Shown in pieces: positions 5,307 to 27,316 of a stretch of 64,000 nt of DNA (its first letter is position 1; the number at the start of each line of letters is the position of its first letter). Below the pieces are notes generated by a model. The model saw only the letters and a list, made by a program, of their open reading frames with translations, did no database searches and was not told the origin of the DNA. A program made the translations under genes and the position numbers. The stretch spans positions 6,353 through 70,352 of the forward strand of contig JAFDIV010000003.1 in the NCBI GenBank assembly GCA_019307815.1, written 5' to 3'. Source of the stretch: Deltaproteobacteria bacterium. GTDB taxonomy: Bacteria > Desulfobacterota > DSM-4660 > Desulfatiglandales > Desulfatiglandaceae.

Positions 5307-8300
5307 CTTTGAATCTCCTCTTCATCGGGACATGCTGTGGAACATCCGATATCCAAGAGCTAGACCAGCGCGATATTTACTTTCAGTTCCCTCTTCATTG
5401 GGACATGCTGTGTAACTTTTGATGCCTTGGAGGCCATAAACTGGGCGATAAACTCCTTTCAGTTCCCTCTTCATTGGGACATGCTGTGTAACTTTTTGTG
5501 CGGTATCGAACCAAGGCATGCCCGCAACCTTTCAGTTCCCTCTTCATTGGGACATGCTGTGTAACCATTCCAGATGAAGTGCTTAATAACCTTTATGATC
5601 TTTCAGTTCCCTCTTCATTGGGACATGCTGTGTAACCTTTCTGAGCGGACTATCTATAATCACCAGAAAGACTTTCAGTTCCCTCTTCATTGGGACATGC
5701 TGTGTAACTTCTTTATTCTTCGGATTTCATCATCCACCGTTTGTCTTTCAGTTCCCTCTTCATTGGGACATGCTGTGTAACCGAAAGGAGATCCTCGCTT
5801 TCGGGACATCCTAGAGACTTTCAGTTCCCTCTTCATTGGGACATGCTGTGTAACTAAACAATTGACTGTTTGCCGATCTGTTTTAAGGACTTTCAGTTCC
5901 CTCTTCATTGGGACATGCTGTGTAACTGTTCTAAAAGGGCTTATGAGAAACAGCCTATTTGCTTTCAGTTCCCTCTTCATTGGGACATGCTGTGTAACTT
6001 AAGGTTATTAAAAATCATTCTGAATTAGATCAAGACTTTCAGTTCCCTCTTCATTGGGACATGCTGTGTAACAGTTGGAAGAGGCCGGAGGTGTTACCCT
6101 TTTTGAGGCTTTCAGTTCCCTCTTCATTGGGACATGCTGTGTAACTTATAAATCCTCCATGTTAGGCATTAGGCGCAAATGGCTTTCAGTTCCCTCTTCA
6201 TTGGGACATGCTGTGTAACCGCTGAGCCTGACCATGGCATAATAGGAGACTAAAACTTTCAGTTCCCTCTTCATTGGGACATGCTGTGTAACCAAATATG
6301 ATGGCTCGAATAAGCAAACTGTTCTAGCTTTCAGTTCCCTCTTCATTGGGACATGCTGTGTAACAGCATATTTCATTGCAGTTCCTTTGCCAGTGGCAGA
6401 GCTTTCAGTTCCCTCTTCATTGGGACATGCTGTGTAACTATTCTACAACTTATGGTGAATATCCAGATAACTATCTTTCAGTTCCCTCTTCATTGGGACA
6501 TGCTGTGTAACTTTGGTGTGATCCCGAATAGCAATCGTATGTCTAGGCTTTCAGTTCCCTCTTCATTGGGACATGCTGTGTAACTTTTCAATAGATTCCT
6601 TAGTTATTCCACGTTTATAACTTTCAGTTCCCTCTTCATTGGGACATGCTGTGTAACTTATATTCCTCACTTCCAATTTTCATTTCCATGTCTACTTTCA
6701 GTTCCCTCTTCATTGGGACATGCTGTGTAACCTAGATTTTGACAAGATAACCAAACCAAAGAATGTCTTTCAGTTCCCTCTTCATTGGGACATGCTGTGT
6801 AACTCTATCAGACCAATATATTCAAATATCGGAGAGTGTCTTTCAGTTCCCTCTTCATTGGGACATGCTGTGTAACCCCAGCATATAACGATGAGGGGAG
6901 CTTTAGCTCCTAACTTTCAGTTCCCTCTTCATTGGGACATGCTGTGTAACGGTATAAATAACTACATAGCCCCAGCAATATTATACCTTTCAGTTCCCTC
7001 TTCATTGGGACATGCTGTGTAACTGGGAAATTAAAACCAGCTCAGTTGGGCACTGAGACTTTCAGTTCCCTCTTCATTGGGACATGCTGTGTAACTGCTG
7101 GGGGTCCCCAGCGGTATCCATCTCCGTTGCCCTTTCAGTTCCCTCTTCATTGGGACATGCTGTGTAACATCCTCTTATTCGCAATAAAGCAGCTTATTTA
7201 CTTCTTTCAGTTCCCTCTTCATTGGGACATGCTGTGTAACAACTAAATTATTGCAGTCCATGTCTGACCAAACTCCTTTCAGTTCCCTCTTCATTGGGAC
7301 ATGCTGTGTAACCAAGGAAAAATCGGGGCGATGTCCCCGATTCATTGTCTTTCAGTTCCCTCTTCATTGGGACATGCTGTGTAACAACTGTAGAAGATTA
7401 TTATACATTCGCAAGTCATGACTTTCAGTTCCCTCTTCATTGGGACATGCTGTGTAACATCCTGCTCGCGGGCTCTTCCTGAAAGCTAAGACATCTTTCA
7501 GTTCCCTCTTCATTGGGACATGCTGTGTAACTCTACGTCCCACCATGAGGTGGCGTCGAAGTCTTCCTTTCAGTTCCCTCTTCATTGGGACATGCTGTGT
7601 AACTGACGTTAACCGATGGCCGCCGCGGCCGCGTCATTACTTTCAGTTCCCTCTTCATTGGGACATGCTGTGTAACATTTGTGGCGAGCCCCTGGAGGTC
7701 ATCACGAACGAGCTTTCAGTTCCCTCTTCATTGGGACATGCTGTGTAACACTTACTGATAATCAACTATGATATCCTGTCCAGTTCTTTCAGTTCCCTCT
7801 TCATTGGGACATGCTGTGTAACTGGATCAGGAACATTGGCGACATTATCAGATCCTTTCTTTCAGTTCCCTCTTCATTGGGACATGCTGTGTAACTTCTG
7901 CAGTTCCTGGTGGACCATCACCACATAAAACCTTTCAGTTCCCTCTTCATTGGGACATGCTGTGTAACTGAGCAACAAATAGGAAGGATCCTCAAAACCA
8001 TGCTCTTTCAGTTCCCTCTTCATTGGGACATGCTGTGTAACTGAAAGGATTGCTCGATGAAGTGTATTAAAAAAGACTTTCAGTTCCCTCTTCATTGGGA
8101 CATGCTGTGTAACAACAATAGGGGGTGCGATCGGACAGGTTTTCACAAACTTTCAGTTCCCTCTTCATTGGGACATGCTGTGTAACGGAACGTGATGGTT
8201 TTATTGGTCTAAAGGATTTTCCCTTTCAGTTCCCTCTTCATTGGGACATGCTGTGTAACAATCTGTCTGTTATGTCAATTACCTTGGGCATATTCTTTCA

Positions 8301-8772
8301 GTTCCCTCTTCATTGGGACATGCTGTGTAACTTCAGGAAGTGAACTTCGTCGAACACTATAGCCTTCTTTCAGTTCCCTCTTCATTGGGACATGCTGTGT
8401 AACACTAAGGACAAAATCGTTCTAATCTGTAAATGAAAGGCTTTCAGTTCCCTCTTCATTGGGACATGCTGTGTAACTACAATAGCGAATATTACCTTAA
8501 GTGTTCACACAACAGCTTTCAGTTCCCTCTTCATTGGGACATGCTGTGTAACGTATCTGAGCAGACCCAGAGGGAGGGAAAGAAGTTTGCTTTCAGTTCC
8601 CTCTTCATTGGGACATGCTGTGTAACGTCAGGCGAGTGCTGACTCGACAGATGAGAAGTCCATCTTTCAGTTCCCTCTTCATTGGGACATGCTGTGTAAC
8701 CATTGATGAAAAGTTGGATCTTATGACACAGGCATCTTTCAGTTCCCTCTTCATTGGGACATGCTGTGTAAC
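5307..8772 (-). CRISPR. CRISPR array: 47 intact 37-bp repeats plus 1 degenerate terminal repeat, 47 spacers of 34-39 bp (mode 36)
   Basis: The plus-strand repeat is CTTTCAGTTCCCTCTTCATTGGGACATGCTGTGTAAC. The first intact copy is at 5380-5416 and the last at 8736-8772, with a period of ~71-76 bp. A degenerate copy at 5307-5343 has 6 mismatches. The transcribed-strand form, GTTACACAGCATGTCCCAATGAAGAGGGAACTGAAAG, ends in ...GAAAG and has the same orientation as the cas genes. The degenerate repeat lies at the cas-distal end. Confidence 0.98.
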
Positions 8773-8872
8773 AGATGCACAAGGGCAAAAAAATATTAGC
8801 AGATTTTTGTTGATGAAAACAATGTTTTTCGAAAGCTCACTTTTCGAGCAAAAAGCCAGGAGGCTTGCGAAA
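8773..8872 (-). promoter_or_regulatory. CRISPR leader (AT-rich) with candidate promoter
   Basis: This is a 100-bp AT-rich stretch between the cas4 stop and the first repeat. On the minus strand there is a TAATAT -10-like hexamer (plus-strand coordinates 8793-8798) about 20 nt upstream of the first repeat, with TTGTTT 18 nt further upstream. A small AAGCC-TCCT-GGCTT hairpin followed by Ts sits just after cas4. Confidence 0.55.
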
Positions 8873-9511
8873 TCACCATACATCGCGGCAATAATTCTGG
8901 TACTCACAGTCAGTACACTTTGCCCTCGAGGAGGCCGCTTGGGGAAATCTTTCGTTCACTATCATCTCTCTAATCCGGCTTAGGGTATTTAGGCACTCTA
9001 CCTTCACCTCTTCTGAAAGATCAAAGACAACCGCATCCTTTTGCGGGATGAGGTATATGAAGCCTTTCTCCACAGGCCGACCAAGCTGGTCCTCTAAGAT
9101 AAGGGCATACCCTCCAAGCTGGTAGAGATGGTTCTTGTGCGGCCTCCCTCTGGTGAATTTGAAGTCAACCGGGTATACCGCTTCATCGGTCTCTATTGCC
9201 ATATCCAGTTTTCCTGAGAGTCCAAGGGAAGCCGAGTGCACCCACCAGTTGAATCGCCTCGTGCCTTCTGCTAGGCCGTATACCCTTAGTTTCCTTCTTC
9301 TTTCCAGTAGCTCCAAGTCTTCTTGCGCGGCCTTCCCTTTTTCCATCTTATATGTCACGGCCTTGTCCACCGGCATGACATACTGGTAATAGACCACCCG
9401 CGGACAATAATAATACTGCTTGAGGTCACTGACCTTGAGTTCAGGCCTATTCGTTTCCATCTTCTTCTGCGAATTCAATATACTCCTTGTATTCCCTAAA
9501 ATCCTTTTCAC
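8873..9511 (-). CDS. cas4: CRISPR-associated exonuclease Cas4 (RecB-like, 4-Cys)
   Basis: It has an N-terminal Cys in YYCPRVVYY, a D-x-K nuclease core at PVDFKFTRG, and a C-terminal CTDCEYQNYC cluster. The likely true start is MET... at 9460. Confidence 0.85.
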   Translation of the reverse strand: MKRILGNTRSILNSQKKMETNRPELKVSDLKQYYYCPRVVYYQYVMPVDKAVTYKMEKGKAAQEDLELLERRRKLRVYGLAEGTRRFNWWVHSASLGLSGKLDMAIETDEAVYPVDFKFTRGRPHKNHLYQLGGYALILEDQLGRPVEKGFIYLIPQKDAVVFDLSEEVKVECLNTLSRIREMIVNERFPQAASSRAKCTDCEYQNYCRDVW

Positions 9512-9791
9512 ATACGGGTTGAATCAGGACCTTGCCATTCGCTCCCTCAAGGTTGTCCCTCAATCTTAAGGCCAGCTCTTCCCTCTTGTTCTTGGAAAGA
9601 TACCCAACAAAACCGCTGAACTGCGTCCTCTCAAGACCAAAGTCCTTGCATATACGGGCGGCCCTATTCCTAACCTTGTCTTCTTCTATGTCGTAAAATA
9701 CGTAAACGATCACCTCTCCCGGTCGCCCCACAAGATCGAGGGCGTTTATGCCTGTCTTGATCATTTCGTGTTTCTTTATGATCTTGCCCAT
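9447..9791 (-). CDS. cas2: CRISPR-associated endoribonuclease Cas2
   Basis: 114 aa. VIVYVFYDIEEDKVRNRAARICKDFGLERTQFSGFVG matches the ferredoxin-fold Cas2 pattern. It sits between cas1 and cas4. Confidence 0.85.
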   Translation of the reverse strand: MGKIIKKHEMIKTGINALDLVGRPGEVIVYVFYDIEEDKVRNRAARICKDFGLERTQFSGFVGYLSKNKREELALRLRDNLEGANGKVLIQPVCEKDFREYKEYIEFAEEDGNE

Positions 9792-9840
9792 GCGCTCGTC
9801 CCAAGGAAGGCGGTTATCTTCACCTGACAGCCACCCTCCT

Positions 9841-11058
9841 TCACCATTTAAAGGAAAAAGGCTTGTAATTCCGCTCTCCTCTGAGGAAGGCTGCCAGATT
9901 CCTGGCCTGTATCTGGATGATGGAGCGAATCTGATATTTCTTACCCTGGTATGTCTCCCTCGTCTCCAGCCTGTTAATTACCTTCTGACTCAAATTCTTT
10001 CTCGTTTCTGCATCCAGAAGCCCCCCTTCCATTTTGATGCTCTCTCCCAGGTTGACATGGGATATGACCGTCCTGTCAACCACCGGCTGCCTGAACTCCT
10101 CCACCAGATCAAGCACCAGAGAAGGTTTTCCCGGCCTGTCCACGTGCAGGAAACCTGCGAAAGGTTCAAGCCCGGCGCATACAACAGCCCCCCAGACATG
10201 GCTGTACAAGATGCCATACCCGTAGTTGAGCATGGCGTTCACCTTGTCTGTGGCACCCCTGTGCACACGTCCCATGAACTCCACCTTGTCTGCGATAATC
10301 TCCTGGACCCCTTCCCAGTACACCCTGCTTGAGCTGCCTTCCAACCCCAAGAGTTCCTTCCGGATGTTTTCCACGCTAGAACCCTTGAGCGCTTTGACTC
10401 GCTTCACCCCTTGTCCCAGCAACTTTGCCTTTTCTTCTATGATCTTGTGCCGCTCAGGTGTGGATTTTTTCAGGTACTTTCCAAAGTAAAGAAGCAGCTT
10501 CCTTTGGTTGTTCAGCTTCCCAAGTACAATCAGTCTCGAAAACTCGGCTCCCCTTTCGTCATCAAGAGCCAGAAATTGTTCCCTCCTCGCCTGGATGGTG
10601 GCTGAAAGCATTGGCGAAGTGAGCTTTGCAAAGGGTCTACCATTGCCGTGGAGAAAATTGATATGGATCCCACGAGCGCAAAGCTCCATTATGAGGTCGG
10701 AAGACAGGGTAATCCCTCTCGATGCGACGGTCACCTCGCTCAGCCGGAAAAAGGGAAACTCATAGATCAGATCCTTTCCCTTCTTCACGATGAGGCGGTC
10801 GCTCTTCTTGCTCAGAAACAGGCCAAAACCTGAAAGGATGATTTGCGCGGCATCTCCAGATCGGACGAGGCTGATCTCGTCACTGACAACCAGGTCTTCT
10901 TCCAGATCCCTGTCCACAATTATGGGAAGAGGCTTTGGCTCGCCAGTGAAAAGGTCGTATTGTGCCGGGATGGTTTTCTCTACCTCTTGTGCTCTTCCCC
11001 CCAGTTGAACTACCTTGCCTGCAGGACCTGCCTCCTGTACTTTATCTCCCATGGCCAA
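9841..11058 (-). CDS. cas1: CRISPR-associated endonuclease Cas1, with a ~70-aa N-terminal extension
   Basis: 405 aa. The C-terminal catalytic region LNYGYGILYSHVWGAVVCAGLEPFAGFLHVDRPGKPSLVLDLVEEFR is a textbook Cas1 signature. Confidence 0.92.
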   Translation of the reverse strand: MAMGDKVQEAGPAGKVVQLGGRAQEVEKTIPAQYDLFTGEPKPLPIIVDRDLEEDLVVSDEISLVRSGDAAQIILSGFGLFLSKKSDRLIVKKGKDLIYEFPFFRLSEVTVASRGITLSSDLIMELCARGIHINFLHGNGRPFAKLTSPMLSATIQARREQFLALDDERGAEFSRLIVLGKLNNQRKLLLYFGKYLKKSTPERHKIIEEKAKLLGQGVKRVKALKGSSVENIRKELLGLEGSSSRVYWEGVQEIIADKVEFMGRVHRGATDKVNAMLNYGYGILYSHVWGAVVCAGLEPFAGFLHVDRPGKPSLVLDLVEEFRQPVVDRTVISHVNLGESIKMEGGLLDAETRKNLSQKVINRLETRETYQGKKYQIRSIIQIQARNLAAFLRGERNYKPFSFKW

Positions 11059-11144
11059 TCCCCCAAGGATCTATCTCTTATTTTTGATTGATATTAAATA
11101 AAACGGCATAAAGGATAGCAGGCTTTAATAAACTTTGGACTATT

Positions 11145-12098
11145 TTAGCTATCGCAACCACATTCATACCATCCTTGACCAAAAGCTGCCGCTTTGCCCA
11201 CATGGACATACTGTCCCAGCCATAGGAAGGGCCAGAATTCTTGGAGATCTCCCTCGTATACCACCTCGCCCACCCAGCCTTTCAGTTTTTGCGTGATCCC
11301 TCGGTGCTTGGAATAACGGCTCTCTTCGACCCATTCCATGTCTTGATGGACTGTGCGCACCTCCTCGGCCCTCTTGCCAAAAACGCGGAAATCCATCTCC
11401 AGGGGCGTTCCGCAATAAAAATACGAAAGGGCATTGATCCTGTCCCTCAGTCGCTTCATGAGGGCACCGAATGTGGGTTGCGCCCATTTTCCCCTTTCCT
11501 TGAGAAGCACAGGGGTCAGGAAACGCACCCGGACCCGATCCTGTTTCAGCTCAGGAGCCTGTTCCAGCCGGACCTCCTCCTGCGGTGTGTGGACAAGATT
11601 ACTGCCGGCCCTCATGACCTCCTGGGCGGTCCCCGAACCGGGCAGGCACTCCACCAGGCCGATGTTAAACCTCCCCCTTCCAACTCCTATCCCCCTTCCG
11701 CCCAACTCGTTGAAGGACACGATCACGTAGGGAAACAGGTCCCGGCATTTCCCAACCAGGACCATCTCGAAGCGCAAGGGTTCCCCGGGCTCGTAGACCT
11801 CCTTGCCGTCCAGGGGAGGCTTGATCACAAAGGGCCTCGGGATGTCACGGTTGAGCCGCAGGCGTTCGGCCGCTTCGGGCACCTTCGGGGCGAAGACCAC
11901 TCCGTAGGGGCAGGTCGAGTGAATTTGGCATGCATCACAAGAGGCCTCTTTTGCCGCGCACACAAGGTTCTTGAGAGAGACCCCAAACGCCCCGCGCAAG
12001 GTGATCCCTTTGTTCATCCGGGGAAGCCGGATGGGCTCCTCAGGTTCCAGGGTGAGCCTCAGGTGCCAGAGGGGACAGATGGATTTGTTCCTAAGCAT
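11145..12098 (-). CDS. cas6: Cas6-family pre-crRNA endoribonuclease (RAMP; Cys-rich N-terminal variant)
   Basis: 317 aa. It carries a 4-Cys stretch VCAAKEASCDACQIHSTCPYGVVF, then FLTPVLLK, and a C-terminal glycine-rich loop HVGKAAAFGQGWY typical of Cas6. It lies directly upstream of cas1. Confidence 0.75.
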   Translation of the reverse strand: MLRNKSICPLWHLRLTLEPEEPIRLPRMNKGITLRGAFGVSLKNLVCAAKEASCDACQIHSTCPYGVVFAPKVPEAAERLRLNRDIPRPFVIKPPLDGKEVYEPGEPLRFEMVLVGKCRDLFPYVIVSFNELGGRGIGVGRGRFNIGLVECLPGSGTAQEVMRAGSNLVHTPQEEVRLEQAPELKQDRVRVRFLTPVLLKERGKWAQPTFGALMKRLRDRINALSYFYCGTPLEMDFRVFGKRAEEVRTVHQDMEWVEESRYSKHRGITQKLKGWVGEVVYEGDLQEFWPFLWLGQYVHVGKAAAFGQGWYECGCDS

Positions 12099-12304
12099 AA
12101 AGCCTCCTTCCTGTCACAAGGCCAGGGTCGGGGCAAAGAGCTGGACCAGGGACGACCTCGAGATGGCCGACCTGACCATCAAGAATCCATTCCTGCTGTC
12201 ATTCTGACAGTCCAAGGCCTTTCATCTTTTCACGAATGGTATCGAGAATGGATTCCCCCTCCCGACTATACGGCATATCCGCCCCTGTAGACCCCACATC
12301 ATCC

Positions 12305-12334
12305 TTGACAAACCTTCACTCTACGAGTTAGATT
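12305..12334 (+). promoter_or_regulatory. Candidate sigma70-type promoter for vapBC
   Basis: TTGACA at 12305-12310, an 18-nt spacer, then TAGATT at 12329-12334, about 38 nt upstream of the vapB ATG. Confidence 0.35.
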
Positions 12335-12371
12335 ATGATCTAGTAAAACTGATTTGCCGAGGTAAACCGCA

Positions 12372-13002: not shown

Positions 13003-13127
13003 CGCAGACAAAGCCAGGCAAAACACTCCCCAACGCCCAAAGCACCAGCCTTTGCAATCCCGCCCATGATCCGGCATGACCCACAGGATACCTAGCTGTC
13101 CGCTCAAACCAACTTCCTGAGCGATGT

Positions 13128-13239: not shown

Positions 13240-13249
13240 GGATTGCCGT

Positions 13250-13900: not shown

Positions 13901-13919
13901 AGCCTATTCTCCCTTTTGT

Positions 13920-19037: not shown

Positions 19038-19038
19038 T

Positions 19039-21819
19039 TCACGCCTCCTTGATCTTCAGTTTGAGAATGTGCAGATAAAGTTCCAGGCAGCGGGCAAACC
19101 GGCCACTGATCACGTCTTCCGGTGAAACTACATCGGGCAAAGGGTTGCTTTCCTTGTCTTTACGTTCAAACAGCCCGCCCTCCTTGAGCGTTGTTCGCGT
19201 CAGACGCCTAAACTCCTCGCTGTCCTTGCCCCAGGTCGCGCCTTTGCTTTCCAAGAGCGCCTGCACATTGCGCAGGCCGGTATCGGTGATTCCACTCTTT
19301 TTCAGGGCGCCCCACATCTCCATCAGCCGGGGGAGCTCCTCCAACAACAGCACATCTTGCTGCGGGTCGAAGCGGAAGCGCTTTGCGGTGTGGTCCAGCC
19401 AGAGGTAAGCCAGGCGCGAGGGGGTAACCTCAACCACGTCGTGCTGCTTCAAGTCGTTCACGTGCACAAGCCAACTGCCATTTTGCTGGAAACGATACCG
19501 GCGGCGATCCGCGGTGCCATCGGCGAACTGTTTGACGTAAAAGTAGGGATACCAGTAGTCTGGCGTCGTGCCGTCACCCATCAAGGTTGGGATGTTCCAT
19601 TCAACACCATTTGTAAATGTGATTTGACCGTTGGTCACGTCCTGCGCCAGCGTCCACGATTCCTCTTCCAGGGGAACTGCCAGCATCCGCCGCGCAGTAT
19701 CCATCGCTGCCATCAGCGGCATTTTACGTGGGAAGAAGACGATGCCCAGGAAAAGCGGCAGGCGATTTTGGACTTTGCCCATCTGGTTCTGGTATTCGCT
19801 CTTGATTTTTTCGGCAATTTCCAGCGCCTCGGATGCTGGTACGAGGGCCATGAAGCGGTCGGGGGATTCCGGAAGGGAAAGGTAAGGAACATACGTTTGG
19901 ATCGGTTCGCCGCTCAGGGATTGCACATGTTGAACGGTAAAAGTTCGTGTCCGAGTGGGCCGATCGGGGAGGGAGACCGTGCACATGCGCCCGTGCCATT
20001 CCCTGACCAAACCGGGTTCATCTTTGGCCTGGGAAACGCCCAGTTGCAGGTTGCTGATGGTGATAAAACGCTTCTCCTGGTCCTGCCAGAGGAGGCTCAC
20101 CGCTTTGCCGTTGATGGTCCCGTCGTAAGGGGCACCCTCTTGCCAGCCGCCTGTAGTATCTGGGATAACGGCCACCCTCGCACAGCGAAGGGGGTCTTGC
20201 CCACCGAAAGATTGCCCGGCCAAGATGCTTCCCAACACTGTCTCTGTCCAGAATCGCTGACAGGTCTCCCAGACGCGGCGCAGCCGGGCCGGGGATGGGT
20301 TCTTGGGTGTGCAGGCGGCGGGATTGTTCTCAACCGCCTTGACCAGCATGGTCTGCACCAGGTCGCCGGAAAGCCAGCGGTCCAGGCCGAATTTTCCCAC
20401 GATCAGCGCTACCCGGCCGTTGTGGTCGGCGATCTCGTCGATCCAGATCGTTTGCTGAGGATTGCTTTCCCAGGCTTTGATGCGGGACACACGCCGTTTC
20501 AGGCACTTCTCACATGCCTGGTTGCCCTCGCGCTTGGGCCGCAGGCAGCAGACGGGGCAGACCTCCCATTTACCTGGCCCCACCGTCGTCCACTGCTGCT
20601 GCCAGCAGGCGCTTAGATTTTGGCTATCGAAGGGCTGCGCCAACGCTTCTAGCGCTTCCTTGCGCGCCTTGCCCAGGATACCCTTGAGTTGCTCAGCGGC
20701 GGTATTGCCGTCACCCTCCGTGACAACAATGCGCGGGGCGAGTTCCATCTCCACCTTTTCCACGCGGCGGCGGATTTCCTGCGCCAGGTCAGCGGGCAAG
20801 TCCAGATCGGGGAAGGTGAAGTAGATGCCGCTGGTGTCGCGATAGATTTCGTTGCCGAGGGGGTATACCTCCTCGATCAGTTTCTTGACCGTTTCACAGG
20901 CTTTCTCCACGGCGCGCCGGTAGCCGAGCAGGTCACCGATTTTGATCGCTTTGGCGTAGAGACCGAGTACATCGAAATTGATGCGGAGGAGGCGCCAGCG
21001 GAGATCGTGGTCAATGACCTTATCTGACCAACTTTTCCACTGCCTTATGTCTGGCTGCTGGTTCCCAAGCAACGCTCCAGCAATAGCTGGTTTGAAAAGT
21101 GCGCCGACGATCCAACTCCAGTCTGACAGGACTACTTCATTGATAGGTCGGCGAGTATCTCCTAGACCGGAAACGAATTCGCTCAGAATCACACCGCGCT
21201 TAGGGGGAACAAGTAACCCCTGAAGGCGGTTATCCAAACTTTGTGGAGATGTATTGACAACAACCTTCTGCCCTTCATAGCCGAAAGCGGTGCTGATGAA
21301 TACATCAGGCCAAGTTTGATCGCCTTGACCTTTTGGTGGATCTTGCTTGTCTACATGGGCTTCGTTGTGACATACGCCGAGGACCGCCGCAAGCCACCCC
21401 GATTTTCCATCCAATAACTGAGAGCGATTTCTAGCAGTAGCGAACCCCGGCGTTCCAAGCATGATGAGTTCAGCTAGGGAATAACTTTCACTGAATAAGC
21501 TAATGGTTGCATTCTGCAAAAAGTTCTTGAGGTTGCGAGAAATGAAATCGGCCGCTTTCGGAGTTTGCGCATTCAAAACGTTATTCAATACATCCGGCTT
21601 TCTGAGTGATGCCGCTGCTTTGCTCAGGCGGATGACAGAGCCTGGATTGTCTATAATGGCCTTGTAAGCATGGTTGTTCGACCACCTTTTCTTTCCTTTT
21701 GTCGCATTTGACTCGACATGTAAATTGCAAAATTTCCCCCCATCATGCAGCAGCGCCGCCACCTCCGCCAGGAGCAGGGCGTCGCGGTTATCGGCCAGTA
21801 CTTTCAAATCAATCGTCAT
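19039..21819 (-). CDS. cas10: Cas10-like large subunit with an N-terminal HD motif and a degenerate cyclase (palm) motif
   Basis: 926 aa. It has the HD motif AALLHDGGKF plus downstream VCHNEAH, a Zn-finger-like CPVCC...CEKC, and palm-like segments IWIDEIADHNGRVALIVGKFG, SPARLRRVWETCQRFW and SPDRFMALVPASEALEIAEKI...LFLGIVFF. There is no GGDD string anywhere. Confidence 0.75.
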   Translation of the reverse strand: MTIDLKVLADNRDALLLAEVAALLHDGGKFCNLHVESNATKGKKRWSNNHAYKAIIDNPGSVIRLSKAAASLRKPDVLNNVLNAQTPKAADFISRNLKNFLQNATISLFSESYSLAELIMLGTPGFATARNRSQLLDGKSGWLAAVLGVCHNEAHVDKQDPPKGQGDQTWPDVFISTAFGYEGQKVVVNTSPQSLDNRLQGLLVPPKRGVILSEFVSGLGDTRRPINEVVLSDWSWIVGALFKPAIAGALLGNQQPDIRQWKSWSDKVIDHDLRWRLLRINFDVLGLYAKAIKIGDLLGYRRAVEKACETVKKLIEEVYPLGNEIYRDTSGIYFTFPDLDLPADLAQEIRRRVEKVEMELAPRIVVTEGDGNTAAEQLKGILGKARKEALEALAQPFDSQNLSACWQQQWTTVGPGKWEVCPVCCLRPKREGNQACEKCLKRRVSRIKAWESNPQQTIWIDEIADHNGRVALIVGKFGLDRWLSGDLVQTMLVKAVENNPAACTPKNPSPARLRRVWETCQRFWTETVLGSILAGQSFGGQDPLRCARVAVIPDTTGGWQEGAPYDGTINGKAVSLLWQDQEKRFITISNLQLGVSQAKDEPGLVREWHGRMCTVSLPDRPTRTRTFTVQHVQSLSGEPIQTYVPYLSLPESPDRFMALVPASEALEIAEKIKSEYQNQMGKVQNRLPLFLGIVFFPRKMPLMAAMDTARRMLAVPLEEESWTLAQDVTNGQITFTNGVEWNIPTLMGDGTTPDYWYPYFYVKQFADGTADRRRYRFQQNGSWLVHVNDLKQHDVVEVTPSRLAYLWLDHTAKRFRFDPQQDVLLLEELPRLMEMWGALKKSGITDTGLRNVQALLESKGATWGKDSEEFRRLTRTTLKEGGLFERKDKESNPLPDVVSPEDVISGRFARCLELYLHILKLKIKEA

Positions 21820-22240
21820 CGGTCACCTCTTGGACAAGTTGTTCGATTCGATCGAGGATATTTTCGGCCGTAGTCAGGGCCTCTCTGGCTTCCTCTTCAC
21901 CAAATAACTCCCAGGGTAAACGACCACCGAATTCGTCTCCATAATCCGTCTGCACATGGAGCTGCGGACCTAGGGGCTGCCCCATTTCGGCTACATGTTG
22001 TACCTCATTCCCCCAGCGAGAGGGAATCTGTTGGCGGGCAACAAGTTCCAGCAAGATGCGCGCCGGATCATGTGTTTTTGGAACCGGTAGGAACACTCCA
22101 ATCAGGGCTTTCAAGGCGTTCTCGACTGCTAATTGGGCATGGGATACCGTGGCGCGCCACCGGCGCAAGCTGAGGTCCTGTCGGGCCTCGTCCAAAAAGC
22201 CGCGAGCCAGTTCAAGGCGAAACGTAACGTTCTCTTTCAT
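21809..22240 (-). CDS. HEPN-domain protein (toxin-type partner of the MNT)
   Basis: 143 aa from the first ATG (MKENVTF...); the longer listed ORF begins at a TTG. ARGFLDEARQDL...ATVSHAQLAVENALKALIG has the helical HEPN pattern. An R-x4-H string (RATVSH) is present, but I cannot confirm that it is the catalytic motif. Confidence 0.7.
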   Translation of the reverse strand: MKENVTFRLELARGFLDEARQDLSLRRWRATVSHAQLAVENALKALIGVFLPVPKTHDPARILLELVARQQIPSRWGNEVQHVAEMGQPLGPQLHVQTDYGDEFGGRLPWELFGEEEAREALTTAENILDRIEQLVQEVTDDD

Positions 22241-22731
22241 GTCGTCCACTCCAATGTCCAATGGCGTTGCGGGTTATCCCGCCAGAGCCAGATCCATTCG
22301 TTCTCGCCAATGGCCTGGCGTTCCAACCCCAAATCGGACAACTGCTTGCGCAAAGCGGACAGACGAACGGACAATAAGGCGTCGGTATTGTCATAGAGCA
22401 CAATGCCATCCAGGGCGATGTCCAGTGCAAGCGGTGTGACCCGAGCGAACCATTCTGAGGAGGTATACGCCAGGATGTTGACTTGATGTCGCCAGGACTG
22501 AGGAAGCAGGGCGAGAATCTGTTTTTGGCGATGCCAGGGGGAATCAGGAAGGTTTTCGGCGATGAGCAGCAGATCCCAATCGCTATCGGGGCGGGCTTCG
22601 TTGCGCGCCCGCGATCCGAACAACACAAGCGCCAGCAGGTTGTCGCCCAGGCCATGGTGTAACGATTCAACCACAGGAGCAAGGACGGCGAGATTATCCT
22701 TCGGGAACTTGTGGGAAGTCTGACTACTCAT
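22237..22731 (-). CDS. Minimal nucleotidyltransferase (MNT, antitoxin-type partner of the HEPN protein)
   Basis: 164 aa. LVLFGSRARNEARPDSDWDLLLI is the GS-x(n)-D-x-D pol-beta-type NTase signature. Confidence 0.8.
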   Translation of the reverse strand: MSSQTSHKFPKDNLAVLAPVVESLHHGLGDNLLALVLFGSRARNEARPDSDWDLLLIAENLPDSPWHRQKQILALLPQSWRHQVNILAYTSSEWFARVTPLALDIALDGIVLYDNTDALLSVRLSALRKQLSDLGLERQAIGENEWIWLWRDNPQRHWTLEWTT

Positions 22732-23672
22732 TGCGCGTCTCCTTGCTCTTTCAAAAGCGTTTCCACAAGCTCGCTCAATCCGGCGAATGAATCGAACTCA
22801 CGCTTCAACCAGATCGGCTCCGATGGTTCAACAGGCTTGGCAACTTCTGCAGGGGGTTTCTCCGTTTCTTTGATGCGGATTTGAACAAAGCCATCATTGA
22901 CTGACTCTTCCGCCACCCCATACCCACTGTTGCGTTTGGCAGAGAAGCCGTAGGTGAGGAACATCGCTTTTAGACTTTCAGCGACCAGGTTCAGGTCTTC
23001 CAGCGCCTGCCGTCGGATGTCGGCTTCGTCCCTGCCGATCAGATCAAAGGGGACATAGAGCAAGGAGAAAGTGCCGTGCGCTCCGGCGGGGACACTCTCA
23101 AACAGAATTGGGTTTTTCCCCACACGGCGTTTGCGATCGTGGGGATTGATGATTTCAAGGCTGGTTTCAGTAAAGAAAGTCGGGTAGAAAAACAGGCGCC
23201 CAGCTTTGCCGTCTTCTTCGCCGCGAATTTCACCAAAGAGGCGCTGCATTTGTTCTTCATTTTGTTTATCGTGTCCCAACTGCCAGAGTGCCGAATACAG
23301 GTTGCCTTTCCAACTGGTGGAGCGCACCATCGGCAACTGGAAGACTTTATCGCGCACAATGGGGTTGTCGATGATGTAGAAGGGATTATCGTCTTTGGAA
23401 ATGTAGGGCCTGGTAAGGGTGAAGGTGAACTGCAGAAACCAGGAAAAGGGCGGAAGGGGATTGAGCTCAATAGTCGGACTTGCAATCATCTGCCAGAGCT
23501 CATTGCTGGGTTCAGAAAAAGAAATTTTGTCTGCTTTTTTGCTCCATGCAGCACGCAAGTTGTCTGCATCCTTCTTTTTACCCTCTGCTATCAGCCGATG
23601 GTAATGGACAGTAACCCCATCAGTATTTTGAGGGTTGCGTTTATCCAATTCAACGAAATAGTCTATGCTCAT
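22728..23672 (-). CDS. cmr6: Type III RAMP (Cmr6/Csm5-like Cas7-group subunit)
   Basis: 314 aa from MSIDYF.... An AGGAGG RBS lies upstream, and the ATG overlaps the cmr1-like stop as ATGA. It has PMVRSTSWKGNLYSALW (the S-x-KG-x-xR/S pattern) and RLFGEIRGEEDGKAGRLFFYPTFF (FG...G-x-l-x-f). Confidence 0.7.
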   Translation of the reverse strand: MSIDYFVELDKRNPQNTDGVTVHYHRLIAEGKKKDADNLRAAWSKKADKISFSEPSNELWQMIASPTIELNPLPPFSWFLQFTFTLTRPYISKDDNPFYIIDNPIVRDKVFQLPMVRSTSWKGNLYSALWQLGHDKQNEEQMQRLFGEIRGEEDGKAGRLFFYPTFFTETSLEIINPHDRKRRVGKNPILFESVPAGAHGTFSLLYVPFDLIGRDEADIRRQALEDLNLVAESLKAMFLTYGFSAKRNSGYGVAEESVNDGFVQIRIKETEKPPAEVAKPVEPSEPIWLKREFDSFAGLSELVETLLKEQGDAQ

Positions 23673-24892
23673 TTTGTTCCTCCTGCGCCCTGTTCCAGAA
23701 TATCTTTGCCCAATACCGCTGAGATTTTTTGGGCTTTTGTATCGAAAACGTGTCGCATGTACTCTTCCAGCATGGCTATCAATGCCTGTGGGGTGGGTAA
23801 TCGGTGTTGGAGCTCTGGCGGCAAAAATGCCCAAACGCGCAAGATATAAACCTCTTTGCTTTCTGGCTTCTGGTAAGGCATTCCAAAGAAGACGCGGCTG
23901 GCTGTGCGAAAATCATCATCAATTTGTCCTTGATTGTTACCCCTTCCCCATTGGGAGCGGGGACCTAAAAGGATGTCGAGTTCTTCCAATTTTTGAGGAT
24001 CAGTTGTTTCCTTCCAGCCTTTGCCCTTAAGCCATTGGCGCATCCCAAAGTTGCCTGTGCCTTTGTAACGCAAATCAAAGGCGCAAGGAATGTAACGATT
24101 CTTCTCCCTTTTGTTGGTCTTGCCGATGTGCGTCCTTTCTGTTGTGAAAGCGTTCAATTGGCTTTTGGAAATCTCAAAAGTGAGGCTGACCAGTTTACGC
24201 AGGTCAAACGGCGTTTCAACGACAGGGCCACTGGAACGAAGTACACCCATTCGGAGTTTGGCTTGTAAATCTTGTATCCCTCTCTCCAGGGTGATGTCAT
24301 TCACCTGCATAGGAAAGACAAATTGCCCAAAGCCATGCTGCAACCTCGCCCCAATGCCACCATATTCAGCCGCAACGCGCAGGATCAGGGCAAACTGACT
24401 CCTGGCGTACTCTGCATCGGACCGGCGGGAGACAAATTGAAAGAGGAGTTCTCCATAGGGCACTTGTAACGAGTCAATATTCTGATTCTCGCCGCCGAAG
24501 ACGCGTTTTAGCCACCCTTGATTCATTTTGATGGTTGTGCGAAAGTGCAAGGGGGTCATAGGTACTTCCATTGCTCTCAACTGAAATAGCCGTGCCCAAC
24601 CTGTTGTCCCAAAAAGGTAACAAACCGGGCACACGCTATTCAGTCCAGCGTTGATAGCTTCGGCTTCAGGCTTACCATCCCTTTTAGCTTGTTCGTAAGA
24701 TTTGGCATCGAACTCACATCGCGTTTTTGGGTCTTCACTCGTCGGATCACATGCATATCCTCCTAGGCCTCGCACAATGGCCTCATACCACCACCGCAGT
24801 GAGCCAATGATGCCGGTCTCGTGCAGGCGGTCGCATGTCCGATCCACCCCTCCGGTCCAGAGCGGAGTCAGTGTCCTTATTTTTATGTCCAT
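23669..24892 (-). CDS. cmr1: Type III RAMP (Cmr1-like Cas7-group subunit)
   Basis: 407 aa. RTLTPLWTGGVDRTCDRLHETGIIGSLRWWYEAIVRGLGG resembles the Cmr1 N-terminal signature. There is a 4-Cys insertion ending CPVCYLFGTTGW. Confidence 0.7.
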   Translation of the reverse strand: MDIKIRTLTPLWTGGVDRTCDRLHETGIIGSLRWWYEAIVRGLGGYACDPTSEDPKTRCEFDAKSYEQAKRDGKPEAEAINAGLNSVCPVCYLFGTTGWARLFQLRAMEVPMTPLHFRTTIKMNQGWLKRVFGGENQNIDSLQVPYGELLFQFVSRRSDAEYARSQFALILRVAAEYGGIGARLQHGFGQFVFPMQVNDITLERGIQDLQAKLRMGVLRSSGPVVETPFDLRKLVSLTFEISKSQLNAFTTERTHIGKTNKREKNRYIPCAFDLRYKGTGNFGMRQWLKGKGWKETTDPQKLEELDILLGPRSQWGRGNNQGQIDDDFRTASRVFFGMPYQKPESKEVYILRVWAFLPPELQHRLPTPQALIAMLEEYMRHVFDTKAQKISAVLGKDILEQGAGGTK

Positions 24893-24922
24893 GAGGTCAA
24901 GCCTCCCTTCATAATCCTGGTT

Positions 24923-27316
24923 TTAGGTTTGCGGTCGCACGCCGTTTTGTAATGCCCGCTGATCGGCCATTTTGACCACCCGCGCCAGGAGCAAGTAGGG
25001 CAGTAATTCGGCATCCCGTCGGGGCCGGATCAGCCGCCGGGACAATTCCCCTTCCTGAAATTCCCACCTTATCCCCTCTACGTCTCCCAGCAATCCCTTG
25101 AGCGCTGTCTTGGCCACAGGGTGGGCGCGGAAAGGGCCGTGGCGGCCGTTGGCCCCGGCACTGTGGTGCCTGACGATGGCCGTCAGTGCGGCGCGTGCCA
25201 ACGCCGGGTCAGGGGTGCGGGCCAGCAACCAGTCCATTGCCGCTGCCGCGCCTGACGCGGCGTGGTTGGGCCTCATTCGGCTTAACTTCCTGTTCAGGGC
25301 TTGCTCCGGCCCGCTCTGCTCGTCGTAGTCCGTGTGCGCTACCAGATAACCTTCTGGGACTTGCAGATTTTGGCCCCGCACCCTGCCCACCTCTTCCTGC
25401 CAGCGGTGGGCCCAGTCTTGCCATTTGACGTCCAGCTTGCCCACGTCATGGAAAGCGATGACCCACCGAGCCAGGCGGTGCAGTGTGCCTGCCGGCCATC
25501 CATACTTCTGCTCCATCCGGCGGGCAGCATAGCCCAATTCTTGGGCCAGCGGCAGCCGTTCCACTCCCTTGTCTCGGTCGAAAAAGGGATGCTCGTAAGC
25601 CCCTAGCATCCGGGCCACATGTTCCTGGAAAGTCTCGCGGTGGTAAGGGTTGGGCCACCCCCTGTCCCTCTCCCGGAGAGGCGAGGCCCACTTCCCATCG
25701 CCAAGCACACCTAGCCGGAACCCGGCCTCCGGGCTGTAGGTGGCCAGGCGGGGGTTGACTGCCAGGATCAGCGCGCCGAGCAGCTCATCCTTGTTCAGGA
25801 TGGGCCGCCATTGCCAGGCGGTCCTTTCGCGGGAGGACTCCTCCTCGGGCAGCGGCTCCGCCGTCATCAGCACCCACTGTTCATTCAGCTCCTCCGCCAG
25901 AGCTTGCAGGCCGTCGAAGGCTCCAAAGAGACTTCCGCGAAAGAGCCCGAAGCCTTCGTAAGCCCACGGGTTCTCAATGCGCCCTGGCTCAGGATGAACG
26001 ATGACCGTGCGGCTTTCCACGTCGCGGATTAATTGACGCGCCGCCCCTTGTTCTTGCATCTCAATAGTATTTGCAATGCGATGAGCAACGGTAAAGCGAC
26101 TGGCCCTGAGACCCTCCAGCAGGTGTTGATCCGCCTCCTCATGGGCCGCATTGACAATTGCCAGTTCAGTGTGAAAGTCAAACACCTCACCGGAACGCTC
26201 GGCAAGGGCTGCCCAGGTCTTCTCACAGATTTCCGTCTGGATGCCGAGATAGGGGGCGTAGTTGGGACCACCATCCTTGTTAACAGGGAGGCGGTAGACC
26301 CATACATCCCCCTCCTCCCCCTCGTAGCGGGCGCAACGGCCTGCCCTTTGGACGATTGAGGCGGCCGGGGCCAGCTCGGTATGAAGCCCCTGGCAGGTAA
26401 TGTCCAGCCCCACCTCCACGACCTGGGTCGCCACCAGGATGGCGCTCTGGACGGTGTAGATGCTCCTGTCCTTGCCGAACTCGCGGCGCAGCCACTCTTC
26501 CTGCGCTTCCCGGTCGCTGCGCAGGAAACGACTATGGAGCAGCCGCACCTCAACCCCAGATCCGGCGATCCGACGCAGTTCCTCGAAGAGCGCCTGGGCC
26601 CGCTCCACCGTGTTACAGATGACGATGGACCGTTGCTTGTGCCTGTCCAGCACCGCCCGGGCCGTCAACCCGGCCTCCACGGTATGCACGCGGCGTGTTT
26701 TCTGCTGCGAGGGCATGGCGGCCAGTTCCTCCGGCAGCAACACCAGCGGCTCGGCATCCAGCTCCCGGGACAGAGCTTCGATCATCTGCCCAGAGAGCGT
26801 GGCGCTCATGGCGATGAAAGGGACGATGCCGCGAAGCAGCCGCAACAGATGCAGCGTGGTCGGCAGACTTGTCTGGGGATCAAACAGGTGGAACTCGTCA
26901 AAGACCAGGTAGGAGCAAAGCACGGCCCCGGCGTTGAGGTTTCCTTGCCCCAAGCTGAGAGAATACGGAATGTTGAGGAAATTGCTCAGAGTTTGGTCAA
27001 TAGTGGTAAAGATCAGATTGCCCTCAAGGCGGGGGTCCTCGGGGCGGCCGCCGGTCTGGACCGTCACATCCATGGGGCGAGTGAAGCCGAAATTCACAGG
27101 CCGGTCCTTGTATTCGTCCCAAAACTGGTTGGCTAACACCCGCAGCGGCACGGAATAGATACACTTGCGGGGAAAATCTTCGCCATACTCCCAAGCACGG
27201 AAGAAAGGGAAGAGCGCGGCACGAGTCTTGCCTGAGCCGGTTGGCGCCTGAAGAATCACGGACCTGCCAGATAAAATCAGTTCGCCGACTTTTTCTTGGA
27301 AAGGATATAATTCCAT
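24923..27316 (-). CDS. cas3: Cas3 helicase-nuclease with a C-terminal HD domain
   Basis: 797 aa. It has helicase motif I (QAPTGSGKT), motif II (VFDEFH), SAT (MSATLS) and a QRAGRCAR arginine finger. The C-terminal HD-type motifs are AFHDVGKLDVKWQ, VAHTDYD, NHAASG and IVRHHS. Confidence 0.9.
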   Translation of the reverse strand: MELYPFQEKVGELILSGRSVILQAPTGSGKTRAALFPFFRAWEYGEDFPRKCIYSVPLRVLANQFWDEYKDRPVNFGFTRPMDVTVQTGGRPEDPRLEGNLIFTTIDQTLSNFLNIPYSLSLGQGNLNAGAVLCSYLVFDEFHLFDPQTSLPTTLHLLRLLRGIVPFIAMSATLSGQMIEALSRELDAEPLVLLPEELAAMPSQQKTRRVHTVEAGLTARAVLDRHKQRSIVICNTVERAQALFEELRRIAGSGVEVRLLHSRFLRSDREAQEEWLRREFGKDRSIYTVQSAILVATQVVEVGLDITCQGLHTELAPAASIVQRAGRCARYEGEEGDVWVYRLPVNKDGGPNYAPYLGIQTEICEKTWAALAERSGEVFDFHTELAIVNAAHEEADQHLLEGLRASRFTVAHRIANTIEMQEQGAARQLIRDVESRTVIVHPEPGRIENPWAYEGFGLFRGSLFGAFDGLQALAEELNEQWVLMTAEPLPEEESSRERTAWQWRPILNKDELLGALILAVNPRLATYSPEAGFRLGVLGDGKWASPLRERDRGWPNPYHRETFQEHVARMLGAYEHPFFDRDKGVERLPLAQELGYAARRMEQKYGWPAGTLHRLARWVIAFHDVGKLDVKWQDWAHRWQEEVGRVRGQNLQVPEGYLVAHTDYDEQSGPEQALNRKLSRMRPNHAASGAAAAMDWLLARTPDPALARAALTAIVRHHSAGANGRHGPFRAHPVAKTALKGLLGDVEGIRWEFQEGELSRRLIRPRRDAELLPYLLLARVVKMADQRALQNGVRPQT

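Follow-up and report, generated by a model that had tools for sequence, protein, structure and literature searches.

A predicted signalling-dead type III-C cassette nested in a type I CRISPR-Cas operon with a single intact cas6, adaptation module and array

The window, i.e. the entire 64-kb stretch of DNA analysed, harbors a genuine CRISPR-Cas locus in which a III-C effector cassette, signalling-dead as judged from its cyclase motif, lies within a type I operon and has the Cas6, the spacer-acquisition genes and the array of this operon in common with it. Profile searches gave strong family matches for the named genes, which are all encoded on the minus strand (with the exception of an inverted toxin-antitoxin pair):

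5307-8772, minus strand: CRISPR array, 47 perfect 37-nt repeats and one degenerate trailer repeat
8773-8872, minus strand: AT-rich leader, adjoining cas4
8873-11058, minus strand: adaptation module (cas1 9841-11058, cas2 9447-9791, cas4 8873-9511)
11145-12098, minus strand: cas6, only intact copy in the window (profile match 1.8e-91)
12372-13002, plus strand: inverted toxin-antitoxin pair (MazE/AbrB-type antitoxin 12372-12653; PIN toxin 12598-13002)
13068-13218, minus strand: cas6 5' relic, a pseudogene fragment of about 50 codons with stop codons and a frameshift
13250-13900, minus strand: cas5 (Cas5a; profile match)
13920-14897, minus strand: cas7, DevR family (TIGR01875, 80 bits, cut-off 67.3)
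14900-16656, minus strand: cas8, disrupted gene for the large subunit in the type I variant (match to Cas8a profile PDLC01417)
16774-17670, minus strand: cmr3, Cas5 group (PADLOC Cmr3, 4.9e-77)
17674-18078, minus strand: cmr5, small subunit, Cas11 group (profile match 5.5e-40)
18048-19037, minus strand: cmr4, backbone RNase subunit, catalytic Asp kept (GRVDMSIVRE)
19039-21819, minus strand: cas10, Csx11/III-C family (PADLOC Cas10c, 3e-169; TIGR02682 Csx11, 444.8 bits, cut-off 248.95)
21809-22261, minus strand: HEPN (PF05168; R-x4-H motif seen in the translation)
22237-22731, minus strand: MNT (Polbeta/NTP_transf_2; GSx10DxD motif seen in the translation)
22728-23834, minus strand: cmr6 (PADLOC Cmr6, 5e-82)
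23669-24892, minus strand: cmr1, type III-C Cas7-group RAMP (TIGR01894, 69 bits, cut-off 28.65)
24923-27316, minus strand: cas3, helicase and HD nuclease domain, intact (TIGR01587, 160 bits, cut-off 102.45)

The block 16774-24892 is a textbook III-C module with unambiguous HMM assignments. This agrees with the first-pass annotation, whose gene list, coordinates and array were borne out by the profile matches and the repeat count, and whose III-C reading, drawn from gene order and an inactivated Cas10 cyclase, was clear in the profile searches, the genes of the block being placed inside type III families; the gene recorded there as a cas5-group RAMP is Cmr3. The GGDD motif of Cmr2 was aligned to SPDR or SPDQ (SPDR in the Cas10 of the window), and by this sequence evidence the cyclase motif is dead, while the HD motif is kept (H25/D26 invariant in 22 homologues) and the Zn-finger cysteines are present. 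In population contigs, cmr6 starts at approximately position 23672 and encodes a product of 314 aa. The MNT-HEPN pair (21809-22731, minus strand) overlaps with its neighbour genes at both ends and is therefore translationally coupled inside the III-C operon; a pair occupies the equivalent position in locus L017 and recurs in L001, L005, L008 and L026.

Upstream of this block, cas3 encodes N-terminal helicase motifs and a C-terminal HD domain (PF18019 Cas3_HD over residues 599-724), in which alignment A2 shows no variation at H623/D624, H661, H685 and H717/H718; a site resembling a promoter is located at 27800-27772. As annotated before, only 30 nt separate the cas3 stop from the cmr1 start and include a GGGAGG ribosome-binding site, which precedes the ATG by 9 nt, and 117 nt lie between cmr3 and cas8. 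Downstream, the presence of a cas8-cas7-cas5 set had been correctly noted, but two of the three genes are not intact. A deletion of 43 nt at approximately position 15226 split the cas8 reading frame into one ORF of 502 aa (15148-16656) and a second of 148 aa in a different frame (14900-15346), which match positions 64-436 and 449-553 of the 555 positions of PDLC01417; the shorter ORF holds a Cas11-like C-terminal domain. In cas5, an in-frame deletion of 90 nt at 13712/13713 removed 30 residues conserved in all five aligned homologues. With every near-identical metagenomic contig covering each site as reference, both deletions were unique to the present assembly (43 nt and 90 nt present in six of six contigs each). 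The overlooked lesions bear directly on the notion of two working effectors in the present strain. The label I-B/I-A-like was only roughly appropriate; the type I module misses the features by which I-A, I-B and I-G are defined and represents a separate, widespread type I variant.

The adaptation genes and the array follow a single intact cas6; as the window covers 64 kb of a metagenome-assembled genome, further arrays or cas6 genes may lie outside it. The true start of cas1 is probably situated about 70 codons into the ORF. The relic upstream of the inverted pair, both real features of the earlier annotation (the pair, then called vapBC, is of MazE/PIN type), shares 79% DNA identity with the live cas6 and 85% with the cas6 of L142. 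The array, the only one in the window, comprises 47 perfect repeats (0 expected by chance) and the degenerate copy at 5307-5343, thus 48 in total, and 47 spacers of 34-39 nt, all of them unique. In crRNA sense the repeat reads GTTACACAGCATGTCCCAATGAAGAGGGAACTGAAAG; its final 8 nt, ACUGAAAG, follow a weak 4-bp hairpin that was no better than that of shuffled sequence (z = -0.55). A protospacer search with the array spacers found none. The GC content of the cas island (54-58%) differs from that of its flanks (47-50%).

Among 52 Csx11 loci from reference genomes, about 39 had at least 4 kb of flank. In 18-19 of these, a type I module was encoded on the same strand; fusion to type I thus characterizes about half of the III-C loci that are informative, and the present locus is ordinary in kind. 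The partners belonged to I-B (L007, L008, L013, L014, L019, L022, L025, L028, L030), I-C (L003, L018, L048), I-D (L029, L033, L036) or the type I variant of the window (L004, L015, L032), with at most one cas1-cas2-cas4 set detected in each composite locus. The design noted beforehand, two effector modules served by a single Cas6, adaptation module and array, accordingly has counterparts in at least 18 further loci combining type I and III-C with a single cas6 and cas1-cas2-cas4; in L033, III-C is likewise nested, within an I-D operon. A search for the same synteny in relatives had been suggested. Independent assemblies from this population (L147-L152, L053, L143) again showed the nested order, as did the sister lineage L062, which carries a different III-C cassette (another Csx11 clade) behind the same cas3-cmr1 junction: 87% DNA identity to the window extends through the ilvE end, cas3 and the first approximately 135 nt of cmr1, followed by divergence. 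In contrast, 48 of the 58 relatives of the present cas3 from metagenomes are directly followed by cas8, and the same holds for L056 and L057; the III-C block is therefore an insertion, and the type I variant usually stands alone without III-C.

Based on these data, the locus is best explained, with moderate confidence, as a complex ("hybrid") class 1 locus that supplies shared crRNAs to two effectors and the type I arm of which is probably crippled. A cassette of the order cmr1-cmr6-[MNT-HEPN]-cas10-cmr4-cmr5-cmr3 entered between cas3 and cas8 of a type I system usually ordered cas3-cas8-cas7-cas5-cas6-cas1-cas2-cas4-array, giving rise to one long co-directional gene string. Cas1-Cas2-Cas4 would load spacers into the sole array, the single Cas6 would cut the transcript to leave an 8-nt ACUGAAAG 5' tag, and the same crRNAs would be offered to both complexes, a common crRNA pool being the best reading of the locus. 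Cascade (Cas8-Cas7-Cas5) would recognize DNA with a flanking PAM and then recruit Cas3, and the complex of III-C would capture complementary transcripts, cleave them through Cmr4 and switch on the Cas10 HD nuclease; because the cyclase motif is dead, it would not signal by cyclic oligoadenylate. As cas8 is frameshifted and cas5 is short of 30 conserved residues, we infer that Cascade function has probably been lost and that III-C is the effector most likely working here.

The hybrid locus is of an already known kind, although its gene order is unusual. Complex loci that combine several interference modules with a single adaptation module have reportedly been described by Bernheim et al. In published examples, mostly type I plus type III, the modules share cas1-cas2(-cas4) and one repeat family or array as in the window, and a role of type III as a second defence line that uses type I crRNAs has been proposed (PMC7145637). 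The present locus differs in its III-C partner, a subtype without mention in that paper, in the interleaving of the cassette between cas3 and cas8 instead of a position beside the operon, and, compared with the separate loci of Marinomonas (PMC7145637), in its single gene string. III-C systems are without cyclase sites and known effectors, HD being kept in about half of them (PMC11229360); with its cyclase dead, the window's locus would therefore mount no cOA-based abortive response. Subtype III-C as described (Csx11-type Cas10, MTH326-like; Vestergaard et al. 2014, PMC3973734; Makarova classification) shares with the module the order cmr1-cmr6-cas10-cmr4-cmr5-cmr3, the Csx11 Cas10, the inactivated cyclase motif and the lack of an own array or adaptation genes, but not the MNT-HEPN pair and the embedding in a type I operon. 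According to bioRxiv 10.1101/2020.04.14.041012 (citing Nickel et al.), type I and III-C also coexist in Methanosarcina mazei Go1, where the I-B Cas6 matures crRNAs of both I-B and III-C in vivo; there, I-B and III-C possess separate arrays and separate cas6 genes, in contrast to the single array, the single live cas6 and the one gene string of the window.

It appears rather doubtful that both arms work, the 43-nt deletion having split Cas8 into a large and a Cas11-like small subunit, and the Cas5 loss being tolerated or the deletions being assembly artefacts. The cas8 deletion is positioned exactly in the linker ahead of the C-terminal domain, and the 148-aa ORF (ATG 15346) corresponds to the C-terminal end of the Cas8a profile and has a weak match to Cas11a; several type I subtypes are known to produce their small subunit separately or by internal translation, and a shortened Cas8 together with the separately translated ORF might still be functional. 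Five of seven population indels are in-frame, which suggests selection still acting on the genes concerned. Furthermore, the twin contig L147 differs from the window by indels only (zero SNPs), yet carries the 43 nt of cas8; some indels could thus be population variants or assembly choices and not fixed lesions. However, a GGGGAG box abuts ATG 15346 directly (poor spacing), a start at this codon would add 39 out-of-frame residues, all 575 Cas8 homologues among the database matches listed are single-frame (mostly 590-610 aa), and the residues lost from Cas5 are those conserved in five of five homologues.

That Cas3 is recruited by, or acts downstream of, the cyclase-dead III-C complex, in analogy to I-D (Cas10d plus Cas3'), would explain the conserved cas3-cmr1 junction, namely its short gap with a strong ribosome-binding site, its retention in L062 despite the swapped cassette and the direct adjacency of cas3b and cmr1 in L007 and L008; a III-C complex without signalling output and an intact cas3 beside damaged cas8 and cas5 would be in line with it. 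This chimeric effector, raised in the first-pass annotation, is nevertheless highly improbable and gained no support from any locus compared: every composite locus with sufficient flank contains a full type I set (cas8 or cas10d, cas7, cas5) adjacent to its cas3, the III-C neighbour varies (cas5, cas6, cas1 or cas3) and there is therefore no consistent cas3 pairing, and cas3 is absent within 7-10 kb of many III-C loci (L017, L038, L040-L047, L049), frameshifted in the population variant L151 and directly followed by cas8 in most metagenomic relatives, while Cas10 retains its own HD motif. The mix of features from types I and III resembles I-D only conceptually: the Cas10d profile had no match among the window proteins, the Cas10 is a genuine member of III-C and has a full Cmr partner set, the Cascade genes form a complete set of their own, and true I-D modules stand beside III-C modules as distinct entities in L029, L033 and L036. 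Mere juxtaposition, with III-C as a horizontally acquired defence-island passenger that has no functional type I link and uses crRNAs of another array or is inactive, is unlikely as well. It would accord with the abundance of mobile add-ons (AbiE, VapBC and MNT-HEPN pairs; IS200-like genes in relatives), the free swapping of cassettes and a GC content atypical for the host. The common strand and tight spacing, terminator-like sites in the gene string that do not exceed chance expectation and the lack of disruptive III-C variants across population contigs argue against it. So does the finding that III-C is fused with four different subtypes of type I and that a single adaptation module and a cas6 are present every time, a pattern that would hardly be expected if these components were not used in common.

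Based on ORF listing and HMM scans, all genes named in the first-pass annotation were recovered on the minus strand with the identities and positions it had given them, and the genes at 16774-24892, which it had regarded as a type III effector module, were placed in type III families (PADLOC, TIGR02682). The locus is composed as follows:

Upstream of the III-C block, minus strand: Cas3, 797 aa, helicase motifs N-terminal, HD domain C-terminal
16774-24892, minus strand: III-C block with Cmr1, Cmr6, minimal nucleotidyltransferase (MNT), HEPN, Cas10, Cmr4, Cmr5 and Cmr3, in this order
Downstream of the III-C block, minus strand: 'Cas8a'-profile protein, DevR-family Cas7, Cas5a-profile protein
15148-16656, minus strand: cas8 piece 1, 502-aa ORF, 'Cas8a' profile positions 64-436
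14900-15346, minus strand: cas8 piece 2, 148-aa ORF in another frame, 'Cas8a' profile positions 449-553
After cas5: cas6 fragment, inverted MazE/PIN pair (plus strand), cas6, cas1, cas2, cas4, leader, array

Both junctions were confirmed in the sequence as they had been described, i.e. a 30-nt gap between cas3 and cmr1 with GGGAGG 9 nt ahead of the ATG, and a 117-nt gap ahead of cas8. Terminator-like sites in the cas region were fewer than in shuffled sequence, the sole promoter-like site upstream of cas3 was located at 27800-27772, and an Rfam scan of the window gave 0 matches. An AT-rich leader of ~100 nt lies between cas4 and the array, which comprises 47 perfect 37-nt repeats (0 expected by chance), a degenerate trailer repeat at 5307-5343 and 47 spacers, all unique and 34-39 nt long; protospacers were matched neither by 24-mers of three spacers in IMG/VR nor by the 47 concatenated spacers among the INPHARED phages.

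The assignment of the nested block to subtype III-C with an inactive Cas10 cyclase was upheld by family matches, motif and gene order: Cas10 matched the Csx11 model TIGR02682 (the Cas10 family of subtype III-C) at 444.8 bits (cut-off 248.95) and the PADLOC Cas10c profile over its full length (3e-169). In the profile of 22 homologues, 'ASPDQ' is positioned in Palm2 opposite the 'AGGDD' of the Cmr2 structures, and the corresponding site of the window Cas10 reads SPDR, so that the GGDD cyclase motif is inactivated. The order cmr1-cmr6-cas10-cmr4-cmr5-cmr3, here with an MNT-HEPN pair inserted between cmr6 and cas10, is also present in at least 40 related loci. The HD motif (H25/D26) and four Zn-finger cysteines of Cas10 are invariant among the 22 homologues, and the catalytic Asp of Cmr4 is kept (GRVDMSIVRE aligned to GNVDLPIQRE of the solved Cmr4); among solved structures, the Csx11 profile matched only 75 residues of Cmr2 Palm2. 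Judged by these motifs, the III-C module looks functional yet unable to signal. III-C loci without cyclase sites and without known cOA effectors have been documented, the HD domain being kept in about half of them (PMC11229360); the window likewise has no cyclase site, and its Cas10 keeps the HD motif. The MNT-HEPN pair (21809-22731, minus strand) overlaps cmr6 and cas10 within the III-C operon and has both catalytic motifs visible; Chloroflexus sp. MS-G has the pair at the same place (L017 9121-9995), it recurs elsewhere in the III-C loci L001, L005, L008 and L026, and it may be a recurrent III-C accessory, not a random toxin-antitoxin insertion.

The type I module carries Cas3 together with genes for Cas8, Cas7 and Cas5, as generally expected of type I, though cas8 is frameshifted and cas5 internally deleted here. 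Its earlier label 'I-B/I-A-like' is no more than approximate, as the module lacks the defining features of both subtypes. Subtype I-A is characterized by a separate cas11/csa5, two cas3 genes (cas3' and cas3'') in place of one, and a Cas7 of the Csa2 type; in contrast, the Cas3 of the window variant is a single fused protein with a C-terminal HD domain, no separate small-subunit gene is present in intact relatives (where Cas8 is ~600 aa long in one frame), and the window Cas7 reached 88.4 bits against the I-A Csa2 model TIGR02583 (cut-off 212.6). The I-A matches were limited to the Cas8a and Cas5a profiles of PADLOC 'CAS-I-A'. With respect to I-B (Cas8b; order cas8b-cas7-cas5-cas3), no window protein matched the PADLOC Cas8b profiles and the Cas7b match was just 6.5e-07, whereas the true I-B modules of the related loci L008, L013 and L019 gave Cas8b scores of 1e-150 to 1e-205; furthermore, cas3 is last in I-B but first in stand-alone relatives of the window variant. 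The C-terminal HD domain of Cas3 is shared with I-G (I-U), but TIGR02621 scored only 180 bits (cut-off 400); the cas5-cas6 and cas4-cas1 fusions of I-G correspond to separate genes in the window, and Cas8u (Csx17) was not matched by any window protein.

When metagenomes were scanned with an alignment of Cas3, 80 loci were recovered, 58 of them with at least 600 nt after cas3. The cas8 of the window variant directly followed cas3 in 48 of these 58, usually then succeeded by cas7-cas5-cas6-cas1-cas2-cas4; a diverged large-subunit gene and cas7 followed in five, and cmr1 in a single locus, L062. Stand-alone examples were also found in L056 and L057; the type I variant is a widespread system. Its Cas8 has no Pfam or NCBIfam model, and the homologues among the matches listed were all named 'hypothetical protein' in their sources; such loci would therefore be under-called by standard annotation, and this widespread variant with its unrecognized large subunit constitutes a second by-product of the analysis. 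In locus L054 (7561-21815), the cas3-cas8-cas7-cas5 set of the variant precedes a WYL gene, a complete I-B module (cas8b-cas7b-cas5b-cas3b) and, after these, a single cas6, so that two type I effector modules stand in tandem.

In the window itself, cas8 did not prove to be the single ORF that had been assumed: the 'Cas8a' profile was matched by the two pieces in different frames, while Cas8 homologues are single-frame proteins of 590-610 aa. The closest of them, P0121 (599 aa, 97% identical), is encoded on the same-population contig L053, which is 97.7-99.7% identical to window 20764-12754 with the same gene order. Compared with L053, the window lacks 43 nt at ~15226 in cas8, by which the frame is shifted in the linker ahead of the Cas11-like C-terminal domain. 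From cas5, 90 nt are missing at 13712/13713, which costs Cas5 30 residues (RIAVRLPHRIVVNNTFTKIWRLNDSVSKKG) that all five aligned homologues conserve. In near-identical contigs of other samples, the 43 nt are present in six of six and the 90 nt likewise in six of six; one of these contigs, L147, differs from the window by no substitution over 18.9 kb, four indels being the sole differences. In the sequence as given, the Cascade large subunit is broken and Cas5 shortened. A programmed frameshift or natural split of cas8 was rejected in favor of the 43-nt deletion, because the six near-identical contigs and all distant homologues are single-frame. The two deletions may be fixed lesions, population variants or assembly choices. 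Assembly k-mer collapse was rejected as their cause, no direct repeats being seen at the cas8 and cas5 deletion borders, though they may still be an artefact. Csx13, considered in view of TIGRFAM notes on a split gene in Lyngbya, was rejected as the identity of Cas8: NCBIfam and Pfam gave no match to either piece.

Among the near-identical population contigs, length variants (6, 6, 37, 42, 43, 51 and 90 nt, five of the seven in-frame) were all situated in type I genes, at 25540-25650 (cas3), 16500 and 15226 (cas8) and 13712 (cas5), and cas3 of L151 is frameshifted. The III-C genes showed one compensated 4/3/1-nt cluster only, in cas10; between the population contigs, substitutions were few and arranged in mosaic blocks (pN/pS per gene, module comparison). 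For the type I indels, relaxed or diversifying selection on that arm is a possible cause, as is mixed-strain assembly. Together with the cassette swaps described below, their concentration in type I genes provides a small natural experiment in module turnover.

The association of III-C with type I modules was surveyed in 52 Csx11 loci from reference genomes, ~39 of which had 4 kb or more of flanking sequence on one side; the loci were mapped with the window proteins and with type I proteins from the loci themselves, and subtypes were checked by PADLOC. A same-strand type I interference module adjoined III-C in 18-19 of the ~39 loci with sufficient flank.

Type I partners of III-C modules in the Csx11 loci
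I-B: L007, L008, L013, L014, L019, L022, L025, L028, L030; possibly L005
I-C: L003, L018, L048
I-D: L029, L033, L036
Type I variant of the window: L004, L015, L032

Where detected, only one cas1-cas2-cas4 set and typically a single cas6 copy were present in these composite loci. The position of III-C varied (after cas3b, cas6, cas1-cas2 or cas5; before cas6-cas3), and in L033 III-C is nested within an I-D operon (1318-19246: cas6d, cas10d, a 333-aa gene, III-C, a 248-aa gene, cas3d, cas4-cas1-cas2), an independent parallel to the nesting in the window. The frequency of 18-19 in ~39 loci therefore indicates that type I loci are the habitual setting of III-C cassettes. Complex loci, in which one adaptation module serves several interference modules, mostly of type I plus type III, have already been described (PMC7145637), and the window displays the features by which Bernheim et al. 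2020 (PMC7145637) define them: interference modules of at least two types in one locus, with just one set of adaptation genes and a common repeat or array. An association of III-C with type I was not found stated in the literature searched; that about half of the informative III-C loci in the sample are fused to type I is a by-product perhaps more useful than the locus itself. The components all belong to known families and the locus is of a published kind; its interleaved order is an unusual permutation, paralleled in L033 and conserved in a small lineage. The comparative loci do not bear out the earlier view of the arrangement as exceptional and possibly chimeric, and its main use lies in the III-C/type I association, the unannotated type I variant and the visible module turnover.

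Since cas8 directly follows cas3 in 48 of the 58 metagenomic loci, the III-C block of the window is an insertion into the cas3-cas8 junction. The search for the same cas3-cmr1 adjacency in relatives, suggested in the first-pass annotation, was thus positive within a narrow circle, i.e. the population assemblies and L062, and negative in those 48 loci. The nested order was reproduced in independent same-population assemblies from several samples (L147-L152, L053, L143), in the same chromosomal context ilvE-(AbiE)-cas3. L062, from a sister lineage, shares 87% DNA identity with the window from the end of ilvE, across the intergenic stretch and cas3, to ~135 nt into cmr1; beyond this point (L062 3463-7580 versus window 24892-20500) its III-C cassette belongs to another Csx11 clade, the Cas10 being 31% identical to that of the window and 51-59% to Microcoleus/Lewinellaceae-type proteins, with HM replacing HD. 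The cassette has been exchanged in situ here, while the cas3-cmr1 junction ahead of it was conserved. Different type III cassettes are also located directly upstream of cas8 in the Cas8-lineage members L058, L059 and L060/L061; together with L062, they indicate that type III cassettes have for some time been interchangeable occupants of the cas3-cas8 slot.

The best-supported reading of the locus is a hybrid whose two effector complexes draw their crRNA from a single array, served by a single Cas6 and a single adaptation module, as the first-pass annotation had considered in one of its two interpretations. The sharing of crRNAs is inferred because cas6 and array are single, the predicted 8-nt 5' tag is ACUGAAAG and the design recurs elsewhere. 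Cascade and Cas3 would conduct PAM-dependent DNA interference, and the III-C complex would act in a transcription-dependent manner via RNA cleavage by Cmr4 and the HD nuclease of Cas10, with no cOA signalling. The locus would offer a natural example of one crRNA supply for a DNA-targeting and a transcript-targeting effector whose type III partner is signalling-dead, and might serve to find out what a III-C complex with a dead cyclase contributes. In the window strain, function of the type I arm is probably impaired, and III-C would then be the effector still at work; alternatively, the 148-aa Cas11-like ORF may act together with the truncated Cas8.

The second interpretation, a chimera in which Cas3 serves the III-C complex in an I-D-like manner, was not supported. 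In I-D, Cas10d replaces Cas8 as the large subunit, whereas the window contains a separate cas8 and none of its proteins matched Cas10d in the HMM scan. In each composite locus with sufficient flank, cas3 is accompanied by a full type I effector set; III-C is not consistently adjacent to cas3, which is missing from the vicinity of many III-C loci; and Cas10 keeps a nuclease motif of its own. A small probability is nevertheless left to the chimera, because the cas3-cmr1 junction survived the cassette swap. We consider it very unlikely that the cyclase-dead III-C depends functionally on the resident type I system beyond borrowing crRNAs. If it did, III-C might pass targets marked by transcription on to Cas3, or the two systems might be co-regulated as one machine, and both the fusion of III-C with four type I subtypes and the retention of the cas3-cmr1 junction through cassette exchange would be explained.

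The GC content of the cas island (54-58%, window 10000-28000) deviates from that of its flanks (47-50%) in the surrounding Desulfobacterales-like MAG chromosome, and the nearest III-C proteins outside the population belong to Chloroflexota, Anaerolineae and Methanothrix; this combination points to horizontal acquisition of the island. For the host, a cyanobacterial origin, suggested at first by the repeat, was rejected: its AlaS is 100% identical to P0241 of a Deltaproteobacteria MAG, and the matches ranking next belong to Desulfobacterales/Thermodesulfobacteriota. The cas5/cas6 junction is a hot spot: at 12372-13323 the window holds a 5' relic of cas6 (79% identical to the live cas6, 85% to the cas6 of L142) and the inverted VapBC-like pair. 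In the sister strain L142 (1565-3361), cas5 is directly followed by a different cas6-cas1-cas2-cas4 allele (68% DNA identity, the repeat co-varying), with neither VapBC pair nor cas6 relic in between, and the unrelated stand-alone locus L056 (13585-14523) carries other toxin-antitoxin genes at this junction. At the opposite edge, between ilvE and cas3 (28116-29016, plus strand), a small ORF is followed by a toxin gene of the AbiEii family (217 aa); found in the same-population contig L147 and missing from L062, this is a recent toxin-antitoxin insertion bordering the cas island.
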